Of a stretch of DNA of 64,000 nucleotides, positions 25,111 to 64,000 are shown piece by piece. The first letter of the stretch is position 1; each line of letters opens with the position of its first letter. The notes beneath the pieces are model-generated. The model was not told where the DNA came from, searched no databases, and saw nothing but the letters and a program-made list of their open reading frames with translations. Both the position numbers and the translations under genes were made by a program. The stretch is taken from assembly GCA_029717555.1 (NCBI GenBank), contig JAMDHS010000020.1, positions 62,001 through 126,000 on the forward strand. The letters are read 5' to 3'. The DNA is from Peribolospora baueri. Its lineage: Eukaryota.

Positions 25111-25409
25111 CGAACCTCTGTGGCTGCATCAGCACCAAGCCTGCCATCCACCCGGCGTCGCGACCAGCGGTGGCGCCTACAACATGAACGGGTCGTACGC
25201 TGTGAGGCTCGCTTTCAGAGACCTCACCCGACAGAATACCTATGCCTTCCACTTCTTAACCCGACGTAAGTTCGCGAGCGGAAGGAGACATCATTATCAT
25301 AGGGCCTTAGTAAATGGGAGGCAACAGTCGAGAGAGCGGCCATTGGCGTGTAATAAGCGCCTCGTCACGTACGCGGAACCGCTACCATTTCACGGGCGGA
25401 ACGACGGCT

Positions 25410-41603: not shown

Positions 41604-42237
41604 TGAAGGCAAGTGGTAAATGGGCTTGGTTTGGTTCAACGGCGTCGTCGATGGCCAAGTTTAGGGTTGGAGCGATGAATTCGGTCCGTCGGCTCGAGCG
41701 AAGTCCACCCACGCGGGGGAAGTGCGAGTGTGGACGGACGGGCGAACATAGGGGTTTACCCAACTCACGCATATACCGCTGAAGGTCGACGTCGGCATGT
41801 AATCGTCATCTGTCCACAGATTTATCGAAGGCCGACCCTCTCTCACAGTCAGTCTGCGCCAAGGATAGTCGTTTTCCGATCGCTCACATGAAACACCTCT
41901 CCTCGCGCGAGCCGTCTGCAACCTCGGTGTCCCCTCAGGAAACTGAATCGCGTCGCGGATGCATAAAAAAGGGCTCTGTTGACGCTGCGACGATGGGGAA
42001 AGACCGGAAATGCGGGAGACTATAAAGGATGAGGAGGACGAAACGGGTCGGGTGGGTATAGACAGAACAAACGATGGACACGTCGGATTGTGGAGGAGAA
42101 ACAAAAAGGCGGATCGTCTTCGACAAGAAGAGGTCGGTCGGTCGTCGCGGGTCATTACAGGATCGTGTCGTTCGGTTCGGTTCGGTTCGGTCCAGTCCGG
42201 CGAGGGTGCCCAAGGTCCACAATGGCCGCCCGTTCCT

Positions 42238-43341: not shown

Positions 43342-43597
43342 CCTTCCTTCCTTCCTGCCCTGGGAGGTGCACGAGCGCCTGATCAAAGGGTGAGTGTGAA
43401 AGGGAAGGAGATGACGAGAAGGACGGTGGGCGAGAAGGGAAGGGACGGCGAAGAGGGACTGACTAGCTAGCAGGAGAACGGGTGACTGACGCACGGCGGA
43501 CGGGAGGGAATCGCGTTGCCGCAGTCTTTCGTCTTTCTCTGCGACAAGCGGCAGGGCAATCTCCCCGTCCGCCCGGCTGGGTACACACACACGCACG

Positions 43598-46500
43598 ATG
43601 GCCGTCCAGCGAAAGGCAAAACAAAAAACGACGGAGGGGAAGAGCAGCTTCAAGAAGAGCGTTCCCGTACGGCTCCTCAAGGAGCAACAGATGAAGAAGC
43701 AGCAGCGGAAGGAGGCGCAGAACGTCTCGCGAAGGGGCGATCGAGAGGACGACGACGAGGCGCGGGTCGACAAAAACGGCGCCGACGGCGCTTCTTCGCC
43801 CCGCAAGAGGCGTCGAACGGAGAAGCAGAAAGAGGCGTCGGCGTCGACCTCGTCGGAGGCTCGCACGCTGTCCTCGAAGTTGCTCGTCCCGCAGGACAGG
43901 CTGCCATGGAAAAAGCTGGAGCGCCCCTTTGAGGCGGGTTTCGATCTAGACGGGGGCCTGCTCGAGCTGGAGGAGGTGGACGGGGTGGAGGTGCGGTACG
44001 AGGAGCAGGAGGGGGGAGGGCGGATTGTCAAGTTTGCTTTGAAGGAGGAGCGGGGAGAGGGCGAAGGGAATGTAGGCGAGGAGAAAGAGGAGGCGGAGGG
44101 AATTTCTTCAGATGACTCGGAAGAACAGGAGTCTCGCGATGAGAGCGGCGAGGCGCCAGGGGAGGAGGCGGAGCGGGAGAATGCGAAGGGGAAGGGCGGA
44201 AAGGAGGACGGGGTGAAAGCTCTTTCCAGCGGTTCGGAAGAGGAGCGTGTCGAGGAAACGTTTGACGGTAAGCCCCGGCGCCGAACCGGATTCTAGGCAC
44301 GATCCTTCCATTCTCATTGGCACGATTGGGGCCTGATATCGTCTCGACGTGTTTGTTTGCAGACGCCCTCCTCCCAGCTTGGTCGTCCATCCCTCTCCAC
44401 CCGTCGCTGAAGCATGCCCTGCTCGCGATGAACTTTACGGCGCCCACCAACATTCAGGCGGCTGCGTTGCCGAAAGCTCTGGAGGGCCGAGACGTGGTCG
44501 GCGTCGCGGAGACGGTGAGTCCTGAGCAGCATCCCGTCCAGCCCGGATCTAAGGGCTTGCACACGTCTTTACGATCAGATGCGATGAGACAACATGATAT
44601 GAGATGAGATGAGCGCCTTGCTGACCGGCATCGCCTTGGATTTGTTTATTCAGGGCTCCGGTAAAACGCTAGCGTACGGGATGGCGATCCTTCACCACAT
44701 CCTCGCCAACACGGAGGACACGTCGCCGAGCGAACATGGTTCGCCTCGACGACCCCTTTCCGCCCTCGTCCTCGCCCCGACGCGCGAGCTGGCGCTCCAG
44801 GTGACGTCGCACCTGAGCGCCGTGCTGGACGCACGGCACGCTCGCGCCGCCTCTTCTTCGTCTTCCGACGGAGGGCCGCGAGGGAGGAGGGTGGTCGTGG
44901 CGAGCGTGTGCGGAGGGATGAGCGTGCAGAAGCAGAAGCGGGTGCTAGGGGCGGGACCGGACGTGATCGTCGCGACGCCGGGCCGACTGTGGGACTTGCT
45001 CGGGGACGACGACGATCTGAGTCGACAGGTGAAGTGGGTGCGGTTCCTGGTCGTCGACGAGGCGGATCGGATGATCGAGGCGGGCCACTTCAAGGAGTTG
45101 GACAGTATCCTCAAGCTGACGCGTCGTCGCACCAAGTGAGTAAGAGAGAGCGCGGGCGCTCGGTCGGTCGGTCGGTCGGTCGGTCGAAGACGAGGTTCGA
45201 CGTGTGCAGGCTGACTGATTTCGCTGACTGGCTTTCTCTCTTCATGTCCGCCGCCGCTGCGATCACCCTGGCAGGAACGACGAGGGCTTCAAAGACGAGT
45301 TCGACGCGGATGAGGCGGGCGCTGCGGCGACGGAGGCGCGGGAGGACATTCAGACGTTCGTCTTCTCCGCGACGCTGAGCAAGGAGCTGCAGCGGGACCT
45401 GAGGCGCGGGAGAGGCGGCGCTGGAGGGCAGGGCAAGGGCAGCAAAGACAAAGGCAAAAGAGGGACGACGCTGGAGGAGCTCGTTCTGAAGATGGACTTT
45501 CGTGACGAGCATCCATTCGTCATCAACCTGGCTCCCGAGAGGGGCGTCGCGGATACGCTCATGGAGGCCAAGCTGGAGTGTCTGAAGGAGGACAAGGCGA
45601 GTCGGCGGGACGGGCGGAGGGAAGGAAGTAGGTTTTGAGCGACCATTACTGACGCTCGTCCTTCTCTTTTCTTTTCTTTCAGGACCTCTACTTGTACTAC
45701 TTTCTGCTCCGCTACCCGGGGCGGACGTTGGTATTCGTGAACAGCGTCGACGGCATCCGGCGACTGCAGCCGCTGCTCTCGCTCCTCCGCTTCCAGTCGC
45801 TGCCGCTGCACTCGCACCTGCAGCAGCGGCAGCGGCTCAAGAACTTGGACCGGTTCAAGGCGGCGACCGAGGCGGTGTTGCTGGCGACGGACGTGGCGGC
45901 GCGTGGGTTGGACGTGCCGAGCGTGGAGCACGTGGTGCACTACCAGCTGCCTCGGACAGCGGATGCGTACGTACACAGGAGCGGGAGGACGGCACGAGCG
46001 AAGAGTGAGGGCGTGAGCCTGGTGCTGTGCGGGCCTGAGGAGAAGAAGGGGATGACGGAGCTAATGAGGAGCTTGCGTAGAGGTGAGCATCGGGCGCCCT
46101 TTCCAAGTCGGGCCTTCTTTTTCTTTCTCTTCGCGCGCTGAAGAAAAGCGAGCCGTTTGTCCGTCCGTTCGTCTTTTCGGCAGAGGACGAGCTGCCAGAC
46201 TTACCGGTGGAAGCGTCCTTCCTGGCGCGCCTGAAGGAGCGCATCGAGCTGGTGCGCCAGATCGACCAGGCGGAGCACAGGCTTCGGAAGGAGCAGCATG
46301 ACCGGAGCTGGCTGAGGGAGCAAGCGGAGGCGTTGGAGATTGAGATGGATTCGGACTTTGTGTGAGCGTTTGTTTCTTTTCGTCGTCGTCGAGGATCCTT
46401 CCGTCCGTCTCATCCCGCTGCTCCGTCCTTCCTTGCTTCTTTCTTGCCTCTTACAGCAGCGACTCGGACGACTCGAACTCGCCTGCGCATCGCCAGTCCA

Positions 46501-46874
46501 AGGGAAAGGCGAACGGGAGCTCGTCCAAATCGCGCGAGCTCAAGGCGCGGCTGTCTGCGCTGCTGAAACAGCCGCTGACGGCGCGCGGGGTGTCGCACCG
46601 GTACATCACGTCAGGACGGCCGGGCTTTGTGGAAGGGCTGCTGGACGGGAGGCGTGAGTGGGAGGGGGCGAGGGATGGAGAAGAGAAGAGACGGGCGGCT
46701 TTTCCGCGGACCGGCCAACTGATCTATCTCTGTTTCTTCCTTCTTTCAGAGCACGCGACGCTATTGGGGGTGGAAATGTCGGCAGCGAAGGACGATGTGG
46801 GGGTCAACGCGTCCAAGGTGGGCAGGGGAGGGAGCAGGAAGCGACGGGGCGCGGTGGAGGAGGAGGCGAATTAG
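43598..46874 (+). CDS. MAK5: DEAD-box RNA helicase MAK5/DDX24
   Basis: [73 protein letters not shown]. Confidence 0.93.
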
Positions 46875-47369
46875 GCGGCACGCAGCGCCGCAGTCAAAGT
46901 TCGCTGAATGAATGGACGAGCGGAGGCGGGCAGGAAGGGGTGCTTGTATGCGCCACGTGGCGTGCCCGCCCATTCATTCCATTTCATTCTAGTCAGTCAG
47001 TGACTCGGCAGGGGCTAGTGACGCACAGAAGAACGCCACTCAGAGTTTGTCGTTGGAGAAGAAAAAAAAAAAAAAACCTCGGGAGTGCCGAGTTTGGCCT
47101 CGAGACGGACAGATAGGCTAGGCTCATTCACGTCCTTGTCCTTGTCCGGGCGGGGGTGGAGTGACGTCATCGGCGCGTCGCCCATGAGCGAGTGTGCGAT
47201 CGATGCGTGCGCTGCGCCAGGGGCGACGGGCCGCGTGCCCCGCGTGACGCGACGCAGCGTACAACAGACGGACGGACGGACGGACGGACGGACGGCCGAC
47301 ATGGACGGGGGGTGGTGTACGTCAATAATAGCGAGTCACACGACGCGATCCGGCCAGGCCAGCAGCAGC

Positions 47370-48294
47370 ACTCACTCAGGTGGGCCAACGACCGAGGAGG
47401 ATCTCGAAGCCGTAGATGGCGCCGACGGGGGTCGTGTCAGTGACCGTGTAAAGAAGACCGCCGCCGATGGCGCTCAGCGCGGCTCCGAGCATGATCCAGG
47501 GAGACCACTAGGACTATGGCTAGAACGGGTCGAGGTGCGCGAGTTGGGAAGGAGCGGGAGTGAGGGCGGCGGCACGGAAGACGTCCGACGGACGACCGGG
47601 TTCGCACCTCTACGAAGGAGCCGGACATCATGATCGAGATCGTAGAGGACCGACCTTGATGCAAGTGGCCCAGGATGCGCCTGTCAGCGAGATCCATATG
47701 GCCCTCAACTTGAGGTCGGTCGGTGAGCCTGCCGACGACGTAGTACACGCCGACGAAGATGCCCGCTCCGCCGACTCGAAGACGACCAAGGTCTGTGGGA
47801 GGGGAACGCCGAACGGCGATGGCGGTGAGCTCGGTGCCAGGTGACCGCGGATGTCGGCCTCGAGTTGGCAGGCATGTCACGTCCCGTCGCGCTCACCGCG
47901 ATGAAGATCCACTTGGCGTCGAAGGAAGCGAAGATGCGTCCTGCAGCGCGCGGACGGAAGGATGGGGATGTGGATGTGAGCGGGCGGGTGGGGCATGTCA
48001 CATCGCATTGCTTCGCATCGCTACGCGACGACGCGACGCGACGCAACGTTACGCAGAGGTCTCACCCCATGAGAGCATGAGGGCGACGCTAGCGAGAAGT
48101 TAAGAGGATTGGAGCCAGGAGATCTTGTCGAACGTGTCGAGCTCGCGGCGATGACGGGCGCGGCGGTGCCTGAGGGCGAACAAGCGAGCGAGGGAGCGAG
48201 GTGGGCTGAGCTTGGTGGGCTGCGAGAAGAGGAGCCGAGCCACACACGCACTTGATCCCTCACCTACGACGTTCGAGTCGATGCCGTTGAGCAT
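47370..48294 (-). pseudogene. Degraded MFS drug/metabolite efflux transporter (DHA2-like)
   Basis: MLNGIDSNVV|GTAAPVIA [frameshift] ELDTFDKISWLQSS*LLASVALMLSW|GRIFASFDAKWIFIA|TLVVFE [deletion] GGAGIFVGVYYVVGRLTD [frameshift] LKLRAIWISLTGASWA..VGPL [large gap] PWIMLGAALSAIGGGLLYTVT. Introns are still recognisable. Confidence 0.75.
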
Positions 48295-49472
48295 CTCGGT
48301 CAGCACGGTGGCGAAGCGGCCACGGGCGAGGGCCGGCGGCGCGGGTAGGGACGGTTTGAGTGCGTGGGGAGGTGGTGGTGGGCGACGACGACGACGAGGC
48401 GCAGGTCTCGGTATCTTGCTGTATCTCTGCCTGCCTGCCTGCCTACCTGCCTGTCTGTCTGTCTCTTTCTCCCCTCCTTCCTCCCATTCTATCTTTCTCT
48501 CTCTTCTCCTGCTCTCATTCTCTATGCCAAGTGCGCATTGGGAGACGTCTGGTCGAGCCATGCGAATCGGAGCGAACGACGAAGCGCTGGCCTGGTTGGT
48601 CTTGCCTCGACAATGCGTTGTCCTGTCTGCGAGGGCGATGGCAGGCGTTTTCACGGTCGACGTCCACGCGGACGGCGTGGTGCGGAACGAGCGCGGGCAC
48701 GGCGCGGCATGAGTGGGCGTGAGTATCGTGTGTCTCCTCCGAAAGCGCCTGCCTGTGATTCTGTCTGCCCGCTCTGCTCTGCTCTGCTCTCCACTGCGCT
48801 GCACGCCGACCGGTCCGGTGGATAGGAGGACGCGCCTGCCTACGCCTTGGTGCCCCCGCCGGCCAGGCCAGGATGTGACCACCGCCTCTTCTTTCCCATC
48901 CGTTCTCCGTCCAGCCACGGCGCTTTGCCGGACCCTGGGTGTGTGCCGGAATGAGGGCCGGGCTGGGTGCCGTTCTGGGCCACACACAGACACGCCCGTT
49001 TTCTCCTGGCCGCACCCAGACCCAATCCAGACCGCATCCAGACGCGCGCCCACTAAGCCCCGTCACCCGCACTCGCTCTCGCACTCGCACTCGCACGACG
49101 GTTCCGTGTGGATAAGAACGGGCGTGCACTTTCGTCGCCTCCGTCGCTTGTTCTTCTCGCCGACGCGATCGCCACCCGCAACACAAACACGGACACGGAC
49201 ATGGGTCAGGGCACTACGTGCGTCCGCACAGGTCTGCTGGACCTGACCCGCGCTGCCCTCACTCGCCCCGCCGGCCAGATGGGATAGGCGCCTTCGTGCG
49301 TACCGTACCTTGTCATCCGCCGAGTCGTTTGCGACTGCTCCTGCGTGGGGGATCTCGAGTCCGAGCCCGGGCTGGAATTCGTCATCCTTATACCAGCTGT
49401 TCACCTTCCCCCCCTCCGTCGCCCCCGCTTGGCCCTCTCTCTCTCGCCCCCATACCCGTCTTCTCTACTCAG

Positions 49473-51349
49473 ATGGGCCTCCTATCGCTCCCTTTGCCCT
49501 TCGACCATGTCCCGCTGCAGGGCTTCGCCGCCGGCGTCCTCGTGCTCTGCATCCTCGCGCTCCTCTTCCGACGCGTCGTCTCGCCCTGGAAGAACGGCAA
49601 GCGCTCCCACCCGTTGCCAGACTCGCCTCCCGGCGCCTTGCCCTACTTGGGCCATCTCTTCTATGTCGCCAAGCCGAGCCTGATGCGCTCCAACTTTGAG
49701 AAGTGGGGCCCCAACTTTGGCGATATCTTCACCTACACAATCGGCCCGCACCGGTTCCTCATCCTCAACAGCACCCACGCCATCGAGGAGCTCCTCGGAA
49801 GGAGGGGCGCCATATACAGCTCGAGGCCGATGGATGCCAGTGAGTCGTCCGTCAGTCCAGTCCAGTCCAAGCGTCGGCGCCGCTTGTCGCCTGCGGCCAG
49901 TCGGCCAGGCCAGACTGGGGACGACTTTCGACGGTATGCTCACCTCTTCTCGCCTCGCCCGGCCCGGGACAGTCGCTCGCGCCTTCTTCACCCAGAAAGC
50001 CACCTCGTTCACCCCGTACGGCCCCGTGTGGAGGCACGCACGCACGCTCATCTCCAAGTCGTACGGACCGGCGCACGCCGTCTCCGACTTCACACGACGA
50101 CTCCTCGAGACCGAGGCCGGGGCGCTCGTCCAGAGGTTGGCCAGGGAGGTACCGTCGACGGAAAAGTTCGATCTGAACGTGGGCTACTACGCACTTGCCG
50201 TATCCTGGCGGACCATCTTCATGGCCGAGGAAGTGGACCCGGCGATCATCGAACCGGCGACGACGGCGGTGCGCGGCGTCACCAAGGCCGAGGGCTTCGG
50301 GTCCAAGATGGTCAATCTGTTCCCCTTCCTCGAAAAGGTACCCGGCTTCCTGCACCGCGACGTGTCGGCGGCGATCGAAGCGCGCAGGGACCTGTCCGCC
50401 ATCTTCGCCCCTCGCTACTACGAAGCCTTGGCCAAAGTCAAGGCAGAGCGTGACGGAAGGCCTCTGCCGTCCGGGCTCGAGCCGGACTGCCACGCGCGTT
50501 TCGTCGCAGAATCGCAGCTGGACGGCGAGATCGACGAAGAGCGGGCCGTGTTCCTCATCGTCGGCCTCCTCTCGGCCACGTCGGACACGACGAGCGGGAG
50601 CGTGAGCTGGATGGTCAAGTACCTGGCCGAATACCCGGAGGTGCAAGCCAAAGCGCACGCCGTGCTGGACGAGGTGGTGGGCCGCGACCTGTTGTCGCCG
50701 CCGACGCTGGCACACGACGCGCGCGAGCCCGACGGCCACTCGGCGCTCGAGTACATCCGCGCCATCGTCAAGGAGACCAACAGGCTCAACCCGGCCTCTC
50801 CCACCGGCGGCCCGAGGGTGGTGGAGCAAGACGACGCCTACAAGGGACGCTTCATCCCTCGCGGCTCCATCGTCTTGCTCAACCTCGGCCACGTTCAAAG
50901 GGACCCGGCGGTGTACGAAGACCCTCTCCGCTTCGATCCCGAGCGTTGGCTGCGCGCTGACAAGACGGGCAAGCGCCCCGGCCTCGACCTCGCCCACGAC
51001 GTGTGGCCCTGTGAGTTGTTTGCTCAGCCCCACTCTGTCCGTCTGTCCATCCATCCCTTTCGATCCTTCCCAGACGTGTGCCCGGAAACAGACCTGACTC
51101 TGATCACCCTCTTTCTCTATCCACCCCTCGCCCCCCTTTCCCCCATCAGTCGGCGCGGGCCGCCGGATCTGCCCGGGCATCTATCTAGCGACCGAATCTC
51201 TTTTCATGGCCATCACGTACATCCTTTGGGCGTTTGAAATTCGACCCCGCCACCCTTCTGACACGCTTGACACGGCCAAGGACCCGGGTGTGGGCAAGAT
51301 CGTGGTGGCACCCACGTCTTTGGACGTCGTTCTCGTACCCCGTCTGTAA
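49473..51349 (+). CDS. Cytochrome P450 monooxygenase
   Basis: N-terminal TM, PPGALPYLGH, IYSSRP, I-helix LSATSDTT, KETNR (ExxR), FDPERW, spliced heme motif F|GAGRRICPG. Introns near 49839-49972 and 51011-51149. Confidence 0.95.
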
Positions 51350-51457
51350 TAATTGTATTCATTGTGACTGCCTGCGCCTGCGCCTGCCCCCCCAGCACAT
51401 TCCGTTCCCCTATCCCTTTTTCATTCCTTCATGACCTGTAATCCATTAGTGACAAGC

Positions 51458-52464
51458 CTATTTCAAAATCTGCGCTCCAGACAAAGCACCCTTGGCGGCG
51501 GAGAGCGTAGAGTAGGCGTACTCGTTGAGGGCGGCCAAGTCGGTCATGACGGCCAACAGGGACATGCCTCGTCCGGCGTTCTTGCGAGTCAGGGCCACGC
51601 CGGCGTCGACGTCGATGGCGGCTTGGGCGGGAGCGGAGAGAGTGCCGACGAACTTGTTGCGCTCACGCGCCGCGGCGGCGACGGAGGCGAGGGCGGCCTC
51701 GAATTCGGCCTCGTCTCCGTCCAATCCGGGAGGGAGGTGGAGGGAGAGGCGCAGGTCGGCGGGGCCGACGAAGGCGCCATCGATGCCGGGCACGGCGAGG
51801 ATGTCGCGCACGTTCTCGACGCCTCGCTTGCTCTCGATCTGCGCCATCAACGTAATCTCCTTCGAGTGCTTGAAAAAGTACGAGGCCACGCCCGGCCGCG
51901 TGCCGCCGCCGCCTGCTGGACCGAGTTGCCGTGGCAAAGCAGCGATGGCGTGGAAGGGTCCGAAGGAGCGCGACCCTTCGGGCGGGTAACGGGCGACATC
52001 CACGATGGCCTCTGCCTGCTCTCGCGTTTCGACCTTGGGTACGATGAGACCGCTGGCGCCTGTGGTGGGGGAAGAGGTGGAAGACAAGAGTTAGCTTAGC
52101 GTGTCCTCGGTGTTTCGCGTCCTCCCCGGCCTTTCTCTCCCCCTTCTCTCTCTCTCTCTCTCTCACCCGCGTCCAACGCCCACTTGACCCAAGCGATATC
52201 ATGGCTGGGCAAGCGAACGATAGGCGCCGTTCGGCCCGCGCCGCCCATGGCGATCGCCTTGACCAGCTCGTCCATCTCCGTCGGACCGAGCGGGCAATGC
52301 TCGGCGTCGATGACCATAAAGTCAAAGTCATGGGTGTGTGCGAGCGTGCGAGCCAGGACGGCGCTGCCCGAGACGAGCCACATCCCGAGCAGCGGCTCGT
52401 CCGCCTTGCGAGGGCCGGCGAGCCGGGAGCGCAGGGAGAGAGACAGGGGCACGTCGTCGTCCAT
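51458..52464 (-). CDS. HpcH/HpaI-family class II pyruvate aldolase
   Basis: IDAEH, PIVRLP, KWALDAG|ASGLIVPKVET, RYPPEGSRSFG, AQIES, FVGPADL. One intron containing (GA)n. Confidence 0.93.
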
Positions 52465-52977
52465 CGCGGCGATGGAAGGAGCGTTTCGGAGGAAGGGGGC
52501 CGAGCGTGGGTGGGTAGAGCGGCTGGCGGCAAGTCGGCCGAAGCTGGCATCTTCCGGACTTCCGCGCCAGGACGGGGAAGAGGGTCTGTCGTTGATCAGA
52601 GCCCATCCCATCCTTGCGCTCTACGTGCATACACTCCCGTTGCGATACAGATCCAGAGTCGGACGTGCATGCGATCCGTAATCGCACGGTCGCTCCTCGA
52701 TCGACTAGTGGGGACCATTCAGCCCCCGTGGCCGACTGACCAGCTCAAGGAACGACCAACGAATGGCATCGCCGCCTTCCACGTCCGAGCCCGAGCCCAA
52801 GCCCGAGGCGAGAGGAGAAGAGACGAGACGAGACGAGACGAGAGCACGGCACGAGCAGCCGGAACACGAACGAAAACTTTCATATTCATTCCCGCCTTTG
52901 GCCATGGCCTGGCGCAGCCCGGACAGCCCGTGTACGCCGTGCCTGCCAACCTTTCCTTCCCTCTGGCAGCTTTAAAA

Positions 52978-54833
52978 ATGCAATCCGACTGCGACACCGT
53001 CGTCGTCGGTGGGGGCGTCGGTGAGCGAGCCGCACTCCATCTCCGCAGACCTGAGTCGGTGAATCACGCTGACCCCGCCGCTGTGGATCGTTCGCAGCGG
53101 GCCTTCAACTCGCCCTCCGTCTGCTCCACGCCGGGAAGAAAGTGGTAGTGGTCGAGAGCTCCGATCGGGTCGGCGGTCGCATCCGAGATGTCGACTTTGG
53201 CGAGGGCATCGAGATCGCCGGTCTCGGCGCCTGGAGGTACAACGCCAACGACAACAAGGTCGAGGCGCTCGTGAAACACTACGGCATCGCTACCGGCTCG
53301 TGGGCCAATCCGACGAGGCAGTACGCGGCGAGGAACGGTGAGCTGGCCGATGGATGACCTCTTCTTTCTCGCGCAAGGATCAAAAATGACGAGAGCGGAG
53401 ACGAGCGGCTAACGTCCATGCGCCCTCTTTCCTGCGGACCAAGTCGTCAAGCCGAGCGTGCGCGCGATTCGACAATCCGTTTTCCCCTCCATCGGCGAGG
53501 ACCATCCGCTGGCGTCTCTGCCCGAGGACGAGGTGGACAAGAGGGCGAGAGAGATCGTGGCGCAATCCTTCCTCTCCTTTTCTCCCAACGAGCATGCTGG
53601 CGACCCACCGACGGGGGGCACTCCCCCCGTCATGTCTACCATCGTAGAAGACGCATTCGGCACGGAGACGGAGCAGTTCTTGTCCTCCGTCTCCCACAGC
53701 TACCACGCCATCTCCGGCCTGCCCGTCGACTTTGTTGTGAGTGCTCGCTAGAGCGGACCCGCCGCGGCGTATGTATTCCAACCCAACCTTGCCCTTCACA
53801 TCTGTCCAGTCGCTCATCCGGTCCGCAAACCCCGAAGAAGACCACCCTTCGAGGCCCGTGCGAGGGATGAACGCCCTCGTCGAGGCGATGGCCAACGATG
53901 TGACCGCGCGGTCGACCGTTAGGCTCAACAGCGAGGTGGTCGGCGTGCGCAGGAGCGACGGCGACGACAAGGGCGGCCGCAAGTATACGTTGACGCTCGC
54001 TGGGCCCGGTGCGACGGGAGAGAGCGGCCATCGAATCACCGCCGACTCCGTGGCGTTGGCCATCCCCTCGTCGTCGCTGCGACGGCTCGCCACGGCGTCC
54101 TCCCTTCTTCGCCCCTTGGCCGAGAACGCGCTGTTGTCGGCCAGCTACGGCATGCCCGCGTTCAAAGCGGTGGCTCTGTACCCCAGCGCGTGGTGGAGCG
54201 CGGCGGCGGTGGCGAGTGACGGGGACGACGAACGACGAAACCTCCAAGACCGCGAGTTCCTAGTGACTTCCTTCTCCAAACTCGGCCTGGTCATGCCGTA
54301 CGCGGGCAGAGGTCCGCGCGGGGAGGCGGCTCTCCACCTCGCCTATTGCAATGACCACCACGCGGCACAGGGCGGTCACTGGGCTCGGCTCGTCGAACGA
54401 GCGAGAGGGGACCGAGAGGAGATCTACGCCAGCGTCGAGTCTGAGCTTCAGGCCCTCTTTCCCACTGCGGACATACCGCGGCCGATACGCTTCGAATACG
54501 TCCTGTGGGCGGACGGGTCGATGTGAGTTACGTTCCGGCGGCGGCCCCGGGGGGGGGGGGCGGGCGCGTTCAGCTTCGACTAACCATCGATCTCTTCTTC
54601 GGTTTTGACACCCGGAACGCGGCGCTTGGGCCAGACACGTTCCTTGTCTCGTCCCTGGTGCGGAACGGGGATTATCGCGCAAGGTCCTCGAGGATTGGGC
54701 CGTCGGCGGACCTCTTCCGGGCGAGCAGATCGTCCTTGCCGGCGAAGCGTTCGCGAATCGGTGGGGCTGGGTGGAGGGGGCGCTCGAGACGGCGGACAGG
54801 GCGGCGGACGTGCTGGTGGGTATGTCCGAATAA
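52978..54833 (+). CDS. Flavin-dependent amine / L-amino-acid oxidase
   Basis: Five exons: VVVGGGV|AGL..VVESSDRVGGRI, GLGAWRY, GMNALVEAM, LAIPSSSL, FKAVALYPSAWW, YVLWADG, LAGEAF..GWVEGALETA. Frame stays open across all four GT..AG introns. Confidence 0.9.
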
Positions 54834-55077
54834 GAGAAAAACAACGAGAAACCAAACTGGCTTTGCGACTTTGTTTTTCCCTCGAAAACGGATATTGTAA
54901 TGACGTCGTTTCGATATCGTCTTAAGGAGATGATCTAATACATCTAGGGGAAGAAGAAAAAAAGAGGCCCCACAAAGATCCATTACGCACACACCCACAC
55001 CCCGCCCAAAACCGTCAGGACTACCCATTCATTAGAGCGCGCTGGGGAAGTTCGAGAGACAAAGGGACGCGGGGTTT

Positions 55078-56673
55078 TCAACGAGACGAAACGGAGGCGC
55101 AGGCGCTGCCGAGGGCGAAACCCTGGTAGAAGAGGCAGGACGGGTCCCACTGGGCCTTGAGGGCCTCCAAGGCGGGCAAGTTGGTCTGGTACAGGTCCTG
55201 AGGGCCGAGATCGGCGACGGAGGCATAGTTGGGGTACGCGCCGAGCGGCTTGCCGTCGCCGCCCACATCGATGCCGGCGGTGTGAGCGAGGGCGGAGAGC
55301 TGCTTGCGGAGCTGCGTCGCGGCGGCGGCGGCTTGAGAGTCGAAGGAAGTGTCGGTCCAAGTGAGCTGGATGCCGACGATGGCACCGAAGGTGTAAGGCT
55401 GCGGGGGCCAGGCGGCCTTGGCGTTTGAGATGACGTCGAAAGCGGTCTTGCGCACGGGTTCGAAGAGGACGGCGCTGCCGTTGTTCACCTGCGGGTAGGT
55501 AGCGAGGAAGGAGGTGTAGGTGGAGAGGGCCTGCTCGAGGAAAGCGGCAGGGAGGGAAGCGACGGTGAGGGTGTCCATGATGTAGCGACCGGGCGGAATG
55601 TTAGCGTCCTGCTCCTGGTTGACCTGGACGTAGTTCTTCTCCGCGGGCGGCGGCAACATGGGAACGGAGACGAGCTTATCGAAGCCGGCAAAGGCGCCAG
55701 AGCTGTTCGCCGCGGCGGCCGTGCCGTTGAACCACGGGTTGGCGAGGATAAAGACGGTGTTGTCGAGAGCGACGAAGGAGACGATCGCGTTGGCGCTCGT
55801 TCCGGTGTCGCTGGCCGTCATGGTGTCCATGGCGCTGGAGACGCCTGCGATGTCGTTGGCGCTGTAGAGCCAGAAGCCGGACCACTGCGTGGGCGAGACG
55901 GGGAGGGTGTTGAGCTCGAAGGAGGTGACGACACCCAACTGGTTCAGGGTGCCGCGAAGGCCGAAGAAGAGGTCGGGGTGGGAAGAGGCGGAGGCGGTGA
56001 CCACTTGGCCTTGGGCGGTGACGACTTGCATCGAGACGATCTGGTCCGTCGCAAAGCCGGCCGCGCCGGTGAGCCAGCTGTCGCCGCCGCCGAGGAGGAG
56101 GCCGCCGACGCCGACGTCGGACACTCTTCCGCCGAGGGGGAACCGGGTGCCGCCGGTGGCCGTCTGCATGGAGGAGTAGACGTCGCCCCATCGCGCGCCG
56201 GGGCCGACGGTAACGCGTTGGGTCTGGCTGTCGTAGCTGGTTTTGTTGAGCGCGCGCAGGGAGAGGACGAGGCCGGGCGGGTACTTGCCGGGGGCGTCAA
56301 ACTTGTGACCTCCGGCGAGGACGGCGTAAGGGATCTTCTGCGAGGAGATGCAGCTGATGATCTCCGCCACGTCCTTGCTGTTTGCGGGCAGCGCCGCGAC
56401 GGTGGCCTGGGAGTAGGCCACGTTGGCGGCGAACCTGCCGACGGCGTCCTGGAAGCCTGCGTCGGACGAGTTGAGGAGCACGTTGGCCGACGACAGCTCG
56501 AGTTTGCACCTGGACAGCGCCGCGGCGACGTCCTGAGGCGTGACCGTCGGCACAAACTCTGGAGCGCGCCGGCCACGACCGCCGCCTTCGTGCCCGTGCC
56601 CGTAGGCGCTGGAGAAGCACAAGCCGGTCAGGGCGCAGAGCAAGCCGAAGGGGGTGTTTGCGGGGAGGCGCAT
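55078..56673 (-). CDS. Secreted FAD-binding PCMH / berberine-bridge-like oxidoreductase, intronless
   Basis: Signal peptide MRLPANTPFGLLCALTGLCFSSAYG, LAGGH, VGPGARWGDVY, GGRVSDVGVGGLLLGGG, PDLFFGLRG, YPNY, LKAQWDP. Confidence 0.93.
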   Translation of the reverse strand: MRLPANTPFGLLCALTGLCFSSAYGHGHEGGGRGRRAPEFVPTVTPQDVAAALSRCKLELSSANVLLNSSDAGFQDAVGRFAANVAYSQATVAALPANSKDVAEIISCISSQKIPYAVLAGGHKFDAPGKYPPGLVLSLRALNKTSYDSQTQRVTVGPGARWGDVYSSMQTATGGTRFPLGGRVSDVGVGGLLLGGGDSWLTGAAGFATDQIVSMQVVTAQGQVVTASASSHPDLFFGLRGTLNQLGVVTSFELNTLPVSPTQWSGFWLYSANDIAGVSSAMDTMTASDTGTSANAIVSFVALDNTVFILANPWFNGTAAAANSSGAFAGFDKLVSVPMLPPPAEKNYVQVNQEQDANIPPGRYIMDTLTVASLPAAFLEQALSTYTSFLATYPQVNNGSAVLFEPVRKTAFDVISNAKAAWPPQPYTFGAIVGIQLTWTDTSFDSQAAAAATQLRKQLSALAHTAGIDVGGDGKPLGAYPNYASVADLGPQDLYQTNLPALEALKAQWDPSCLFYQGFALGSACASVSSR

Positions 56674-57436
56674 GGCGGTAAGCGCACCGGGCGGGGGGCA
56701 AAGGGAAAAGAGTGGGAGAAGCGGAGCAAAAGAAAGGTGAGAGAGTGTGCGTGAGCGCTAGAAGGCCTTCCTCGCTGCCCCCTCCCAAGACTTCCTCGTC
56801 TTCTTTATGTCTTTTTTGCTCGAGACACGGGAGGGGAGGTACGAACGGTGGCGGCGGCGGCGGTGGACGAGGCGAGGTGGATATGCGTGTTCGTTCCATC
56901 TTCACCACCGGGGCGGGGGCTTGCGCCTTTACGCCCACGGCGAGGCGAGCTGGCGAACGAAGCCTGGGCCTCTGGCAGGAAAAATGCGGGACGGAGGGCG
57001 CCAAGGCAGAAAGGGGGGAGGGAGGTGAGTGAGGCCGGCGACCATCATATCTCCCTTCGAAGACGGCGCATAACCAAAGAGGTCGACGGACACATCGCCC
57101 GTGGCGTAATGCTTCTCCAATCACCCACACGCATAGCAGTAGCACGCACTGACCCGGGTCGAGGCGAGACGAGACCGAGTCTGGTCTCGAGAGATCGTTG
57201 CGGAAGAGCACGCACGACTCGGAACCGCATAATAATTCCTTCGGATGACCGGGAAAATTTTTAGTATTTCTTTTCCCACACAGCGGAAACAGAACATGGT
57301 AAATTCCCAGAAAAACACAAAAAGAATAATAACAACGACGACGAGCCCAACGGACTACGCGCACAGGAATCAAATCTGGCCAAGAAGGACGCTAAAGCGT
57401 CCGGCCGGACGGGTGCTTTTCTTTCGACAGGCTCGT

Positions 57437-59632
57437 TTACGCAGGCGAGATCTGGATACCCTTGTTGAAAACGTTCTCAGGATCGTACTTGGCCTTGAGC
57501 CGCTCCAGCCGGCCAAGGTTCTGGCCGTAGTATTCGGACGCCGGGACACCCGCGAGGGAATAGTTGGGGTAGAGCAACGCGCAAGCCGACTTGCCGCCCG
57601 CCGCCTCCGTGATCCGTTTCTCGCCATCGAGCAGGGCGTCCGGGACGAGGGCGTTGATGGAGGGATCGGGCGAGACGATGAGCAGCTCGAACACGTTCAA
57701 TTGCGGGTCGCCATGGGGGAACGCCGACGACTCGTTGGAGAAGTTGGCGAACGCGCCCTGCGGACACAGGAAAGGGGGGGTTCAGAGACCTTGGGTCAGC
57801 CCCTCGGCCCTCGCGACAGGCGGGGGCGGCATTCCCACCTTGAACATGGGCTCCACGAGTACGATCGTCCCCATAAAGCGCGGGTCGCGCCCGATCAACT
57901 CCTCCTGCCACTTGAGCGCCGCCTTAAAGACGTCGACGGTGAGCTTTGCGGGGGAGGCGGTGTGCATGAACGCGTTCAAAACGTTGGACGGCGTCGACAA
58001 CGAGTCTGATGGTGATGATGATGATGAAGAGGCGAGCGATCGATGCAGAACGAACGACGGGGGTCAGTCAGGAGAGAGCCGCACACGCACGCGACCAGCC
58101 GAGGAAGGACTCGCCCTGCATCGCGTTAACCTCTTCCCAAGTCATCTCCTTGGTCTGGTTGGCGACCGGCCCCAAATCAAGAGCCCATTTGAACACCTCC
58201 TGCCCTTCCTTCTCGGTGCCGTTCGTCAGCAGAGGCGCGATGACGCAGGCAGGGTGGTACTCGGGCGGCTGCCGCATGGTGACGAACAGCAGGGACGCTC
58301 CCGGGTCACGGTTGTTCGCGTGGAAAGTGGAGATGGCCTCTGTGAGCGCGTCGAACTTGTCCATAGTGAAAGCTGGTGGAGGTGGGGGGGGCCGGGGTAG
58401 AGAGAGGTGGGTGAGCACCGCCAAAAAGGCTGTTCTGGTCCGCCAGTCCTTTAGGTCCATGAACCGACCGACGTACCGATCACTCCAGACCAGCTTCGCT
58501 TCGGCTTCGGGAAAGCTCGCTGCGAGCCCCGGGGGGGAAAGGACAAAGAGGGAATTGAATACGCTTGCACGACAGCGTGGCGCAGAAGAAGCAGAAGACG
58601 GACTGACCAAGACAAACTCGGTGACGACTGCAAGAGGGCAAGACATGACATGAATGGCAAGACGACTCAGGTCAAGACTCCGGGGGGGGGGGGGTCATGC
58701 GGCTCTGCTCTGCTCGACTCAAGCCGCCGCATGCTCACCACCGAACTTGTTTCCGGCGCCTTTGAGGGCAAACATGAGGTCTGCGTCGTCTTTGGCGCGG
58801 ACGACCTCCCCGTTAGCGAGGACCACCTGAGCGGCGGGGGGGAGGGGGGAGGAAGGGCCAAAGTGCACGCGGGGTGAGCAGGAGAGAGAGCCAACGTGCC
58901 CCGGGGCCGAGGGCGAGCGGCCATCCGTCTGGCTCACCTCGGCATCGACGAGACTGTCGGAAGCGAGGCCGTGCTCGTGAGCGAGGTAGCTAATCCCACC
59001 GCCGAGGATGAAGCCGCCCACGCCGACGGAGCCGACCCTGCCGCCGAGAACGGTGACGTCGGTGGAGGCGAGCTTGCCATACACGGACGACCACGTCTGA
59101 CCGGGGCCGAGGACGACGGTGTTGTCCTTGGCGTCGTACTCGACTCTGAGACGGAGCGAGGTGATCAGCACACAGGAGAAAGGGGAACGACCGACGGTGC
59201 GCTAGCTAGCCAGGCCGGGCTGGCTGGTTGCTGCTGCTGCTGTTGCGGCTGCTCACTTGTTCAACTTGGCGAGGTCGATGACGACGCCCTCCGACTGCGA
59301 GTACGACATGCCGCCCGACCGCACAGCAAAGTCGATCTTGTTCGAGGCGAGCCATTTCACCTGCACACGAGGCCCAAGGTCGCGAGGCAGGAGCGGAGGT
59401 CAGGCAAGGCAAGCGACGGGCGGGCGCGGGAGAGCACACGACGAACGGTACGTACCGCCTTGGAGACGTCGTCCACGGTCGCGGGCCGGAGGACGGCTTG
59501 GGCTTGTTTCTTGTTCTGGACGCCCCACGAGGTGGTGGACTTGTTGAACTCTGCGCCATCGGTGGGGGTGATGACTTCGCCAGAGAAGGCGGGTCGGAAG
59601 GCGGCGAGCTGTTCGGCGAAGGAGGCAGACAT
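57437..59632 (-). CDS. Intracellular FAD-binding PCMH / BBE-like oxidoreductase, multi-exon
   Basis: AVLRPATVDDVSKA|..FAVRSGGMS, LGPGQTWSSVY, GGRVGSVGVGGFILGGG, DLMFALKGAGNKFG, YPNY..YYGQNLGRLERLKAKYDPENVF. No signal peptide. Confidence 0.9.
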
Positions 59633-60666
59633 GGCGGCGAGGCGAGGCGAAGCGAGGGAACGCGATCTGTGGCAAGCGAGGTCGGGCGTGAGGATGGTGG
59701 TGGGACGCGTCTTGCGTCTTGCTTTGGCGGTGGACGTGGCCGACGGGCGTGGCTGGCTGGCTATCTATCCAAGGGGTCGTCGTGACCGCCGATAGACACC
59801 CACAGCCGCCCGCCCGCCCATCCGACGGGCCGGCGAGCCCCGACGGGGGCGGTGGAGAATCGAGGATGCGGATGAAACACGACGGCGGTCGTGCGTGTCC
59901 GACAAGCTCGCTGTCCGTCGCACAAGGTGCGTGCGTTTGGTGCGAATACGGATGGAGCCTTAATGGCCACGTTCCCACGTTACGCCGCAGCCCCGTGCGG
60001 GGCATCGAAGTCCGCACGGGGCTGCGGCGCGCGACCCAGAAAGCAGACTCTGGTGCGGCCCAGACATACATACGTGAAACCGACGTGGCTTGCGGCACGG
60101 CGGCCGCATTTTAGAAGTGGGTGAGCGGACAAGGCTTGCTTAGAATCGCACGCGCCAGGGCCTCCCAGTCGATGGCCAATCGCCAATCGCAAGCGTCCAT
60201 CGCCCATTCCACCCGTCCCTCGGCCTGGGCCCTGCAGGGCGCCGCTTGATCGCCGTCCGACGTCGGACTGACCGTCGGCGAGCATCGAGATCGATTGCGT
60301 CGCGTCGCGTTCCTTTTCCTACCCCGTCCTCGCTGTCCTCCTGTCTGATCGCGGCTTGAGCGCCGGTGTACCGCCTAGTTCGATACTCGAGTGAAGAAGG
60401 TTCCGCGACCGTGAATTAAAGGAACGCTCGCTCGCTAGTTGGAAATCTATTCTCCGCGAAACGACTAAAACGGCCAGTCAGGTCTAGTCTACATTATTAT
60501 AGGTCCGCAAGCGGGGTAGGTAGCAGGGGGGACGTGTCTACGATGAAAACAAGGTATACAGAATGGAACCATGCAGAGAAAGGGTAGCGAAAAAGGGAAG
60601 CGAAAGGAAAAGAAAGGGTGGTGCAGAGGGAGAAAGAACAACAAGCGCGGACGGACGGCCCCACGT

Positions 60667-61980
60667 TCAGGCGCGGCCCCGTTCCCGAGCGTAGACCTCT
60701 GGGCTGAGGTAGATGGTAACGTCGCGCTCGCCGTTCTTGATCGCGCATCCGATCATGGTCTGCAATCCGGATCGAGAATTCAGGTCGCGGTGAGCGCCGA
60801 GTCGACGTACGAGGTCGGAATACCAACCGCGCTCGCGAACGAGACCGTGTCGGACCAAGAAATCGTCCATCCGGTCGGCCAATAGGGCGTCGGATCGGAA
60901 GTAGTGTCGCACGGGGAGATAGAACTTGGCCGACGGTAGAGGTCGGCCCTTGCGGAGCTCGTAGTAGGCCACGATGCCCTTTGTTCGCTCTGACTGGCCG
61001 TCGAGGTCTTGGCACGCCAGCACCGAACTAGAACCGGTCGTCGCCGTCGTCGTCGTCGCCTGCGTGGCCGGCGCGGGAACGTCCACAGGCACCTCACAGA
61101 ACGCCGCCCAGAGGTCCTGAGCGGCGCTGATCTGAGACTGCAGGGCGGCGTCGGTGGAAGGGACGGCACCGCCGAGAGACAGGTGCGACACCAGGTCGTC
61201 GAGGCCGGAGACGCGGAAACGCACGTAGACCTTGACGCGCGCCAGCTCTGGGGAAAGGCAGTCGACGCCCAAAAATTCGACCGTGCCCGCGGGCTCGTCG
61301 GGGCGACGACCGGCGTTGAGACCGCGCAGGTAGGCGTCGATGGCGTTCCACCCTTGATCGAGGCCGATGGACCTCATGGCGTCCGCGTAGGCCGCTTCGA
61401 CGGGTTGACGACGACGACGGTTGTGGGCGCGCTTGAGGGCGTCGGTGCACATGTACGCTTTCAGCAGCGGCTCCCGGCCAACGAGGTCGCAGCCGAACGC
61501 CAGTTGGGTCAGACCTTTCGCTTCGTCCGGCACGTTTGGGCCCGGGTCGAGGACGAGGTGCTTGCGGAGTTGGTGGAACCAGCCGAGGTCCATGTTGGGC
61601 GAATACGCCTGGTGCTCTTCGACCCATGCCAGCGGCGCCAGCGCGTTCACCGGGTCGGCCCTCTGCAAGGCCTCCGTAGGTGGCGCGGGCTCAAAGGAGA
61701 AGCGCACCTTGGCGCCGGCGTTCTTGGAGATGCTGATTGAGTACTCCACGGGAGAGTGGTCGTCGGTCATGTACGACTTCCAGCGCGCCGTCGGCAAGCC
61801 GCCCGGGCCATCCATCGGGGGGTTCGGGCCCAACGCGCCGGATCGGACGACGCGTTCGATGAAGAGCTCGCGCGAGGCGGCCGCCCGGCCGACGTCCTCT
61901 TCGCAGGCAGACAAGAGGATAGAAAGTTGCTCTACCAAGAGAGCGGCGCGGAACCATGGCGGCTGCTCCTTCTGCTGCAT
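60667..61980 (-). CDS. DMATS-family (ABBA) aromatic prenyltransferase, intronless
   Basis: LGP.P, WKSYMTDDHSPVEYS, VRFSFEP, LKAY, FLGVDCL.P..ARVKVY, YYELR..LPSAKFYLPVRHY, GLQT, TIYLSP. An upstream in-frame ATG exists at 62094. Confidence 0.94.
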   Translation of the reverse strand: MQQKEQPPWFRAALLVEQLSILLSACEEDVGRAAASRELFIERVVRSGALGPNPPMDGPGGLPTARWKSYMTDDHSPVEYSISISKNAGAKVRFSFEPAPPTEALQRADPVNALAPLAWVEEHQAYSPNMDLGWFHQLRKHLVLDPGPNVPDEAKGLTQLAFGCDLVGREPLLKAYMCTDALKRAHNRRRRQPVEAAYADAMRSIGLDQGWNAIDAYLRGLNAGRRPDEPAGTVEFLGVDCLSPELARVKVYVRFRVSGLDDLVSHLSLGGAVPSTDAALQSQISAAQDLWAAFCEVPVDVPAPATQATTTTATTGSSSVLACQDLDGQSERTKGIVAYYELRKGRPLPSAKFYLPVRHYFRSDALLADRMDDFLVRHGLVRERGWYSDLVRRLGAHRDLNSRSGLQTMIGCAIKNGERDVTIYLSPEVYARERGRA

Positions 61981-63747
61981 CGCCGAAGCGGTACTCGCAG
62001 ACCTGACCCTCCCGCCTAGTGCGGACCGGAGGGTGGGTAGACAAGTGGAGAAGGTGGGTTTAGAAGAAGCGAGGGTCTGCTGAGGGGCGAGCATCACCGT
62101 CGGAGGGGTTTATTAACGTAGAGCGGGAAGCAGGAGCAATGACCGCTATGGAGAGACGCGAGCAGGATAGGATCGCAAGCGCTCTGATTGTGAGAGGGAG
62201 AGAGGGAAGGTGAGGGCCATCCGAGGCAGGTACGGACGGACCACTCTGCTTTTTTTTACTCTTATCGGGTCCGGACAAGCGATCTCATCCTTACGGGGCC
62301 ACCCACTGCGGGATGGCCGTCTGAACAGACCCGTGGGCTGGGCTGGGCTCGGAGAGGTGCTTTCCGCCGCAGGGGAGGGCGACGGATAGCAAACCGGAGG
62401 ACCGGTGGGGATGGAATAGTCAGCACGTTACCCGGAGACAGACCAGACCGGTAGGCAGGGCACTGCAACGACTCGGATAAGCGGTGGTGGACAACGGCGG
62501 TGCCGTCCTGGAACGGGCTTGATGCACCCGCTTGGAGTTTGCACATACGGCGCGCATGTTATCTATAGCCGTCCGTCCACTGAAAACTGAAGCGGGCACA
62601 GCCTGAGAGACGGGCTGACCTGGGCGTGTGCTCATCGCACCCGGAAGAGGCCAGGGCGTTCTCCAAGGCGGCGGAGAGCGACCCAGTTAGGTGTGCGCCC
62701 GCTGTACTCTTCTTGCTGTACTCCACCGGACGTTCCTCTCCCTGCGCTCAGGGCCGTCACGAGACGACGACACGTTCAAAGGCCATGGCAGGAAGCGCCG
62801 TCGTTGCGCGGAGCAGAGGAAGTATGCTCATATTAGCATTTTCGTTCGTCCCTGCCTCGCTCTCTCTGCCTCTTTGTCTCTCTGTCTCTTTCTGTCTCTC
62901 TCTTTCGCAAGCGGAGGTGGAACGGTGCGGACGGAGGGACGAGAAGACGAAGCGGGAGCGAGAGAGAGAGGAGAAGCGGATATGGACCGAAGATCAAAGA
63001 CGAAGAACCGCGCCGTGCCTACAGAGGACGTGGCAGACGAATACGAATACAAATTCGAATACGAACACGAATCATGACCGACCTGTCTCTGCATGGACAC
63101 GGATGGAGCTGCCAGGTGCCAGGCCCAGCGCGAGGGTCACTCTGGGCCTGCGCGCTGGCGGCGGTACCCTGGAGTCACCTCTTCGGAAAGCGGCTCCAAC
63201 TCGGACTAGGGCGGCGTTACGGTGTTCCTGCTGCGTCGTCATGGCTTATCATGCGTACGCACACCCAGCCAACACCCAGCAACACCCAACGACACCCACC
63301 GTCACGCTCGTCCCACTCTCTCAACACCCCGTGGCCGGGTGGACCTTTTACTCGAGTCCTGCCTTCTCCCGTCGGCATTCGCATGGATCCTGATATCCGG
63401 CTGTGGCCACCGCTCTCACGCCCGCTGACCTGCGCGCACAGCTTCTCCGTCGGCCTGTGCAGCCAGCAAGGCCTTCATGGCCCCGGCCTGGTGCTCCATG
63501 ATCTGCACCGACAGGCGGAACAATGTGTCCACCTATAATCTCATCATCGTCCCCTGCGGCGCGTGCTCCAACCAAGGCACGCAGCCAACGACACACCCTC
63601 TTAAAGCTCCACGGGGCCTCTCGTCGCACCGTCAGGTGTCCCTCCTTCCACCTCCACCGCCTTCGCCGCTTTCGACTCCATACCCATTCCCCTCTCCACC
63701 AACCCGTCCGGCGCGTCGTCCATCCACCGCCCTTGACATCGCTCAAG

Positions 63748-64000
63748 ATGGATCCGAGCGCCCTTCCGACGATGACCATCCCGGTCGTCAGCGAGACGCT
63801 CTTGCGGCAGCAAGGTGAGCAGTAGCAGTCACGAGCCGCCGCTGGGCATGGGCGAGAGAGAAGAAAAAAGGAAGGAATGAAGGAAGGAAAGGGCGCCCAC
63901 GCCAGCGTCGCTCGTCCGCCCCCTCGACTCTTCTCACCTCCGTGCGTGCGTCCCACCTCGCGCCTATAGCCACCTTCAACTACATTCAGGTAGCCTTTGC
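63748..64000 (+). CDS. 5' fragment of a probable gene running off the window
   Basis: ATG 63748 MDPSALPTMTIPVVSETLLRQQ, intron gtgagc..tag (63815-63969), then ATFNYIQVAF. Too short to assign. Confidence 0.35.

Follow-up and report, generated by a model that had tools for sequence, protein, structure and literature searches.

Within a 64,000-nt stretch of the Peribolospora baueri genome (contig JAMDHS010000020.1, positions 62,001 to 126,000; hereafter the window, numbered from its first letter), we found six consecutive, open enzyme genes that together occupy 12.6 kb between positions 49473 and 62094. These genes are predicted to encode a cytochrome P450, an HpcH/HpaI aldolase, an L-amino-acid-oxidase-like flavoenzyme (referred to below as the oxidase), two BBE-like flavin adenine dinucleotide (FAD) oxidases (BBE1 and BBE2) and a DMATS-type prenyltransferase, and all six are neighbours (6/6) separated by short spacers (Table 1). 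Pfam was run on 84 stop-to-stop open reading frames (ORFs) between 42.5 and 64 kb, and 10 of these ORFs had family matches, namely to DEAD/Helicase_C (44603-46141, plus strand), p450 (two ORFs, plus), HpcH_HpaI (two, minus), Amino_oxidase (plus), FAD_binding_4 (two, minus) and Trp_DMAT (minus). Neither Pfam nor the coding score detected a further gene between the six enzyme genes, in agreement with the claim of an earlier, sequence-only reading of this DNA that no housekeeping gene lies inside the group.

Gene models were built with a dynamic programme that used codon usage and GT-AG splice sites and were then corrected manually; as a check, Pfam profile coordinates were followed exon by exon to see that they ran in order. 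For all six genes, nearly the whole Pfam profile was covered, the exons followed one another in profile order, and the GT-AG introns left an open frame. The catalytic motifs sought in the six enzymes were mostly found, the exception being BBE2, which carries GGM rather than GGH. Taken together, the Pfam matches, exon-level profiles, open GT-AG models and motifs uphold the sequence-only reading in its description of six contiguous, intact enzyme genes. That reading had placed the start of the cluster at 47370. The first gene begins at 49473, and because no gene was found between 47.0 and 49.4 kb, we set the start of the cluster at 49473.

Table 1. Cluster genes, the neighbouring helicase gene and the spacer between them (window positions).
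Feature	Position	Strand	Model and basis
Cytochrome P450	49473-51349	+	3 exons, ~535 aa
HpcH/HpaI aldolase	51458-52464	-	2 exons, 300 aa
L-amino-acid-oxidase-like flavoenzyme	52978-54833	+	5 exons, 495 aa
BBE1 (BBE-like / VAO-type FAD oxidase)	55078-56673	-	1 exon, 532 aa
BBE2 (BBE-like FAD oxidase)	57437-59632	-	~9 exons, ~470 aa
DMATS prenyltransferase	60667-62094 or to 61980	-	1 exon, 476 or 438 aa
DEAD-box RNA helicase, housekeeping neighbour (labelled MAK5 in the sequence-only reading)	43598-46365	+	approximate model; DEAD 2.9e-24, Helicase_C 6.2e-26
Spacer between helicase and P450, no gene detected	46900-49472	.	coding score, Pfam, transmembrane scan

The DMATS gene could start at its first ATG (62094, giving 476 aa) or at the ATG at 61980 (438 aa). 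Its product matched Pfam Trp_DMAT (PF11991) with an E-value of 7.6e-61 over positions 40-348 of the 357-position profile, and its nearest clusters in the ESM Atlas were all Trp_DMAT. The best solved relative was Claviceps DmaW (8day, 2.9e-21), which scored 79.6 bits compared to at most 42 bits for the others; behind DmaW came GliD1, AuraA, FtmPT1 and FgaPT2. Blocks that aligned to DmaW were DDHSPVEYS, LKAYM, RVKVYVR, KFYLPVRHY and TIYLSPEVY; work on FgaPT2 and DmaW has established that the Glu of SPxE is catalytic and that the Lys, Arg and Tyr blocks bind the diphosphate. Eight database proteins matched at E<=0.001, the best being a Logan protein (39% identity) and aromatic prenyltransferases of the Agaricales Rhodocollybia and Mycena (38-43%). 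By family, the window gene is thus a predicted DMATS-type aromatic prenyltransferase.

The oxidase gene was modelled manually with exons at 52978-53020, 53098-53337, 53444-53736, 53810-54522 and 54635-54833, on which the Pfam Amino_oxidase profile was matched at positions 3-77, 198-381 and 408-442 of 443. The predicted protein has an N-terminal dinucleotide fold (GGGVAG) and the C-terminal signature IVLAGEAF..GWVEGA. A family profile built from an alignment of eight sequences (A1) was compared with the Protein Data Bank (PDB) and matched the amino-acid oxidases L-Lys oxidase (7eih, 2.2e-25), two ancestral L-amino acid oxidases (7.7e-22 for 8jhe, and 8.3e-18) and VioA (9.4e-17), as well as an entry named "amine oxidoreductase" (1.3e-24); for amine oxidases, the values were 2.9e-08 (MAO-A) and 1.3e-08 (putrescine oxidase). 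The A1 scores, such as that for L-Lys oxidase against that for MAO-A, support at family level a predicted enzyme closer to L-amino-acid oxidases than to monoamine oxidases, and the label "amino-acid oxidase" given in the sequence-only reading is borne out at that level. A1 scored L-Lys and broad L-amino acid oxidases more strongly than VioA, so the profile match does not by itself point to specificity for Trp. Exon 2 contains a G(A/G)WR block that is also present in the three family members aligned there (P0131, P0134 and P0135), and this block may correspond to the GPMR of L-amino acid oxidases.

The oxidase family is very rare. As a single sequence, exon 4 had no PDB match at E<=0.01 and no word-index match among longer proteins. 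A full HMMER pass of exon 4 over 1.84 billion representatives returned 22 proteins at E<=0.001, of which seven reached 1e-10 and none reached 1e-30. Ten of the 22 were looked up; the named ones were hypothetical proteins of Atractiella rhizophila, Hyaloraphidium curvatum (two) and Cladochytrium replicatum, and one further protein was a "hypothetical protein" from JGI. The closest homologues, P0129 and P0130 (44% identity), have their last residue exactly where exon 4 ends, which suggests that they have an intron position in common with the window oxidase.

The aldolase gene is encoded on the minus strand by exons at 52464-52167 and 52059-51458, so that it converges on the P450 gene across a 108-nt gap and diverges from the oxidase gene, with which it has a 513-nt upstream region in common. 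Pfam HpcH_HpaI was matched on its two exons at profile positions 2-76 and 86-209 of 221. Among 21 PDB relatives, the best was the bacterial HpcH/HpaI hydroxyketoacid aldolase 6r62. The motifs D-x-EH, VRLPSH, QIES and GPADL all aligned with fungal and bacterial homologues; in the structures of HpaI and YfaU, these motifs provide the catalytic His (D-x-EH), an Arg (VRxP), and the metal-binding Glu (QIE) and Asp (GPxDL). The window aldolase is therefore a predicted class II (metal-dependent) member of the HpcH/HpaI family in which the catalytic residues are kept. It resembles HpaI, YfaU, the hydroxyketoacid aldolases and macrophomate synthase, which represents the family in fungal secondary metabolism, in its HpcH/HpaI fold and in its metal and arginine motifs, but it is nearer to the bacterial aldolases than to macrophomate synthase (1.6e-17 for 6r62 vs 3.3e-09 for 1izc). 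Its identity to known proteins is 30-47%: the closest in a large database were Logan proteins (46-47%), followed by proteins of Fonsecaea (40%) and Exophiala (37%), and the remaining matches with an organism name were mostly bacterial.

The P450 gene has exons at 49473-49839, 49973-51010 and 51150-51349, the exact acceptor of intron 1 being uncertain, and the Pfam p450 profile was matched on the three exons at positions 3-71, 85-393 and 405-455 of 462. Its product carries a membrane anchor at its N-terminus, and the heme loop FGAGRRICPG is encoded by the last exon. The best PDB matches were generic microsomal class II P450s such as CYP17A2 (2.1e-19).

The two BBE-like genes differ in several features. 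BBE1 has a signal-peptide-like N-terminus and matched Pfam FAD_binding_4 (3.1e-23), with no Pfam BBE domain reported. It had 77 PDB relatives, and across the FAD domain alone EncM (2.4e-23), the xylooligosaccharide-oxidase-type entry 5k8e (4e-23) and glucooligosaccharide oxidase (2.3e-19) were matched. BBE2 has no signal peptide and matched both FAD_binding_4 (profile positions 17-54 and 58-134) and the BBE domain (1.2e-09); its splice model was made manually and has four in-frame alternatives, with exon borders uncertain between 58.3 and 58.95 kb. We take GGH to mark the position of the His-flavin link and the Cys position to be the second link in bicovalent enzymes. BBE1 has the GGH motif with Val at the bicovalent-Cys position, and BBE2 has GGM in place of GGH, also with Val at the Cys position, such that BBE2 probably binds FAD non-covalently. 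The His and Cys of bicovalent flavin attachment do not occur together in BBE1 or in BBE2; since both lack this pair, they are BBE-like in fold and not bicovalent BBE proper.

Neither the 110 ORFs of 140 aa or longer between 1 and 44.6 kb nor the ORFs scanned between 42.5 and 64 kb yielded a domain of a polyketide synthase (PKS), a nonribosomal peptide synthetase (NRPS) or a terpene cyclase, and no adenylation domain was found in the ORFs scanned across the window. The earlier statement that the window holds no backbone gene thus stands for the ORFs scanned. The description of the cluster as "backbone-less" is accurate to the same extent, but it does not denote an exceptional trait, because DMATS-only clusters are a recognised class, exemplified by the early genes of the ergot pathway (dmaW, easF, easE and easC). 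In those early genes, as here, a DMATS performs the committing step without any PKS, NRPS or terpene cyclase and alongside a BBE-like FAD oxidase, and DmaW is the nearest solved relative of the window DMATS. The window cluster differs in that no methyltransferase or catalase was found and in that it has an oxidase and a class II aldolase, which are absent from the ergot pathway. We read the accessory enzyme set as a new composition for a DMATS cluster and the lack of a PKS or NRPS as unremarkable in itself. The author of the sequence-only reading knew of no described pathway with this gene set; likewise, full-text searches outside subscription papers turned up no matching cluster among the papers listed.

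The sequence-only reading had also included a decayed pump of the major facilitator superfamily (MFS) in the cluster, and none of our searches retrieved it. Pfam at lax thresholds found the MFS family neither in the 35 ORFs of 45 aa or more between 46.9 and 49.5 kb (E up to 1) nor in the 80 ORFs between 56.7 and 60.7 kb and between 62.05 and 64 kb (E up to 0.1). The GC content at third codon positions (GC3) and the codon score were flat at 47.0-49.4 kb, where there was at most weak GC3 periodicity, at 59.7-60.65 kb and at 62.1-64.0 kb. A scan for hydrophobic segments between 46.9 and 49.45 kb returned one low-complexity hydrophobic patch and no run resembling a transmembrane segment, and six-frame reading together with the same type of scan found no MFS pump between 62.1 and 64 kb.

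A related organism provided a comparison for the locus. Two sequencing runs of this organism, designated organism B, carry 30% of the window's words, whereas two other runs, probably of the source organism (organism A), contain the window in full. The contigs of X1 and of X3, a run of organism B, were compared with positions 44001-64000. Organism B was colinear with 44584-59670 at ~1.6-4% mismatches per piece and is ~2% diverged. Within this colinear region, a joint bridged by a single contig connects 48517 to 51840, skipping 3322 nt and removing the whole P450 gene and the 3' part of the aldolase gene. Position 51840 lies in codon 73 in exon 2 of the aldolase gene, so organism B lacks the aldolase C-terminus from there on, including the metal-binding Glu (QIES) and Asp (GPADL). 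A second joint, likewise bridged by a single contig, connects 53209 to 53311; here 101 nt are replaced by 6, oxidase exon 2 loses ~32 codons, and the frame shifts. The indels listed for organism B include four in BBE1 of 18, 1, 19 and 19 nt (sum 57), which may or may not break the frame, and a further 47 indels lie beyond those listed. The contig that covers 58038-59670 continues for ~6.7 kb off the window sequence.

At least three of the six genes (P450, aldolase and oxidase) are therefore disabled in one short lineage in which the helicase side is colinear. Because the deleted part of the aldolase is homologous to the rest of its family, the comparison indicates that the window preserves the ancestral, intact arrangement and that organism B holds a decayed remnant. 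Judged from one comparison, this joint decay would be expected if the genes belonged to a pathway that can be dispensed with and in which no gene is of use by itself. Two further candidate lesions were set aside: in aldolase exon 1, a skip from 52345 to 52414 is spanned by undetermined bases and was not used as a lesion, and a loss of the DMATS gene was not counted as evidence, 60.0-64.0 kb being almost uncovered in organism B with no contig joining across. The left edge of the 3322-nt deletion (48518) lies 13 nt downstream of the end of a CTGC/CTGT-type microsatellite at 48427-48504, and a second microsatellite of this type lies at 62866-62907. A search for repeats or mobile-element ends on either side of the cluster or the deletion returned nothing beyond a microsatellite and chance pairs.

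Homologues elsewhere bear on whether these genes travel together. The oxidase homologue P0130 (44%) and the DMATS homologue P0005 (35%) are each recorded in ENA on exactly one contig, in each case of 6014 nt, and from this equal size alone the two are probably neighbours within 6 kb in another organism. The best matches of both DMATS and oxidase were in basidiomycetes or early-diverging fungi, and in the databases searched the DMATS, the aldolase and the oxidase appear rare and patchily distributed.

Outside the cluster, the helicase gene adjoins it as the sequence-only reading had stated, with its DEAD and Helicase_C domains on the plus strand. Apart from a transcription factor domain and integrase remnants, the 110 ORFs between 1 and 44.6 kb matched only housekeeping families (DnaJ, isocitrate/isopropylmalate dehydrogenase, Nup188, COG6 and ribosomal eS6). 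The domain is of the fungal-specific transcription factor type (3.2e-16) and belongs to an ORF at 13615-14964 (minus strand); separated from the cluster by ~35 kb of sequence that includes housekeeping genes, this ORF probably does not encode the cluster's regulator. Within the housekeeping block, two ORFs on opposite strands at 23387-25128 matched Integrase_H2C2 (1.1e-15 and 4.5e-07) and are integrase remnants of a long terminal repeat (LTR) retrotransposon. The intron-free Nup188 ORF (27928-33492, plus strand, 1855 aa) matched two solved entries, one of them of Xenopus type (1.2e-08); among solved structures, it had no match to the Nup188 of Chaetomium, Myceliophthora or yeast, entries that we take to be contained in the structure bank. 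Together with the best matches in Agaricales and Atractiella, this hints, without proving it, that the host is not an ascomycete, and a basidiomycete with a small genome (~23 million letters of contigs per run) is our best guess; ribosomal eS6 was too conserved to be informative. The GC content of the window ranges from 0.56 to 0.65 and is highest at 44-62 kb. It rises from ~0.57-0.60 upstream to 0.61-0.65 at 42000-62000, a region that takes in the helicase gene as well as the entire cluster, so the rise extends beyond the cluster itself.

On these observations, we consider it moderately probable that the six genes form one genuine, compact, lineage-restricted secondary-metabolite cluster of the DMATS class, in a probable basidiomycete; the grounds for a functional cluster are firmer than those available to the sequence-only reading. 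The substrates, the order of the steps and the participation of all six genes in one pathway are what we infer in the following scheme. First, the oxidase would turn an aromatic L-amino acid, most likely Trp and possibly Tyr or Phe, into the 2-imino or 2-oxo acid. The Mg-dependent class II aldolase would then form a C-C bond with the arylpyruvate, either by adding a pyruvate enolate (derived from pyruvate or oxaloacetate) to its keto group or by using the arylpyruvate as the nucleophile. The DMATS would next prenylate the aromatic ring, and the P450, anchored in the endoplasmic reticulum, would act with the two BBE-like flavoenzymes to hydroxylate and oxidatively cyclise or dehydrogenate the product. 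Candidate skeletons would be a 4-aryl-methyl-4-hydroxy-2-oxoglutarate (monatin-type) or an aldol dimer of arylpyruvate. That the oxidase and aldolase replace an aminotransferase and an NRPS-like enzyme in building the skeleton, ahead of prenylation and oxidative cyclisation, as the sequence-only reading had also suggested for the oxidase-aldolase pair, is a far more tentative proposal than the existence of the cluster, and one that we regard as doubtful; the scheme is plausible on the family-level chemistry of the enzymes.

Several systems offer partial parallels to this scheme. The pathways to terrequinone (tdi) and to butyrolactone/aspulvinone would resemble it in their progression from an aromatic amino acid through an arylpyruvate and a C-C coupling to prenylation by a DMATS, but they use an aminotransferase and an NRPS-like enzyme of A-T-TE architecture where the window has an FAD oxidase and a metal-dependent aldolase. 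In the VioA/RebO/StaO systems, an enzyme with the flavin amine-oxidase fold opens the pathway by oxidising L-Trp, and A1 matched VioA, as given above; in contrast, the window oxidase family is nearer to L-Lys and broad oxidases, and there is no heme coupling enzyme of the VioB/StaD type. The cyclopiazonic acid cluster likewise has a DMATS (CpaD) beside an enzyme of the flavin amine-oxidase fold (CpaO), but its backbone enzyme is a PKS-NRPS, and CpaO acts as an oxidocyclase on the prenylated intermediate.

The strongest alternative, which we nevertheless hold to be unlikely, is a chance neighbourhood in which a catabolic oxidase-aldolase pair and a secreted, carbohydrate-type BBE1 lie next to a minimal DMATS/P450 unit, perhaps with BBE2, that would do no more than prenylate and oxidise Trp or Tyr. 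In the catabolic pair, the oxidase would yield a 2-oxo acid, and the aldolase would cleave or form hydroxy-oxo acids. Several points favour such a neighbourhood and weigh against a single cluster. HpcH aldolases are mostly catabolic enzymes, and HpcH/HpaI relatives are annotated as such, e.g. RhmA and 4-hydroxy-2-oxoheptanedioate aldolase. The secretion-type N-terminus of BBE1 and its likeness to xylo- and gluco-oligosaccharide oxidases, which match it about as well as EncM does, would fit a role outside the pathway. The upstream regions are without a common motif: no 7-mer other than low-complexity ones was common to all five regions, and no 8-mer or 9-mer occurred in at least four. In addition, colinearity with organism B stops between BBE2 and DMATS, the DMATS gene lying past its end at 59670. 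Also to be set against a single pathway are that no transcription factor or transporter was found inside the cluster, that the lesions in organism B could be separate losses of unrelated dispensable genes, that the pairing of P0130 with P0005 has contig size as its basis, and that the JGI metagenome contigs yielded no relative to P0133 alone or to a three-sequence alignment (A2).

Against a chance neighbourhood, the P450 and aldolase genes were lost by one deletion and the oxidase gene by another in the same sister lineage, with the helicase side colinear, and homologues of the oxidase and the DMATS probably lie on one 6-kb contig elsewhere. Furthermore, unlike conserved catabolic genes, the DMATS, aldolase and oxidase had no close orthologue in the databases searched (for the P450 and the BBEs, the comparison was with Pfam and PDB only).

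A second alternative accepts the cluster as real but places a scaffold gene (NRPS-like, NRPS or PKS) or a regulator past the end of the window, with the oxidase supplying arylpyruvate to a pathway of the terrequinone type. The window stops 1.9 kb after the DMATS gene, the corresponding contig of the source run continues for ~1.7 kb (18446 nt, with the window end at position 16735), and known fungal couplings of arylpyruvates use NRPS-like enzymes. However, 62.1-64.0 kb had neither coding signal nor Pfam match, so at least 1.9 kb beyond the DMATS gene is apparently non-coding, and an intact aldolase in the middle of the cluster would have no obvious other role. We judge this alternative to be improbable, more so than a chance neighbourhood. 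Least of all do we expect an early pathway of the ergot or clavine kind, in which the DMATS would form 4-dimethylallyl-Trp and a BBE-like oxidase would act as the chanoclavine-forming EasE: DmaW is the best solved relative of the DMATS, well ahead of the rest in bit score, and BBE-like oxidases are in the cluster, but the ergot pathway requires EasF and EasC, the window ORFs scanned yielded no domain of an N-methyltransferase (EasF-type) or a catalase (EasC-type), and such a pathway offers no step for the oxidase or the aldolase.

Of the leads that emerge from this analysis, the most useful are the pair of species with intact and decayed copies and the rare oxidase family. The intact copy in the window and the decayed copy in organism B would serve as a natural producer/non-producer pair for metabolomics. 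If the six genes cooperate, the cluster would be relevant to pathway discovery, to forming C-C bonds on arylpyruvates by biocatalysis and to the little-studied secondary metabolism of fungi with small genomes, probably basidiomycetes. If the proposed route is true, fungi would be able to assemble an aromatic scaffold by means of an oxidase and an aldolase, with no thiotemplate enzyme, and the product would represent a new class of prenylated metabolite.

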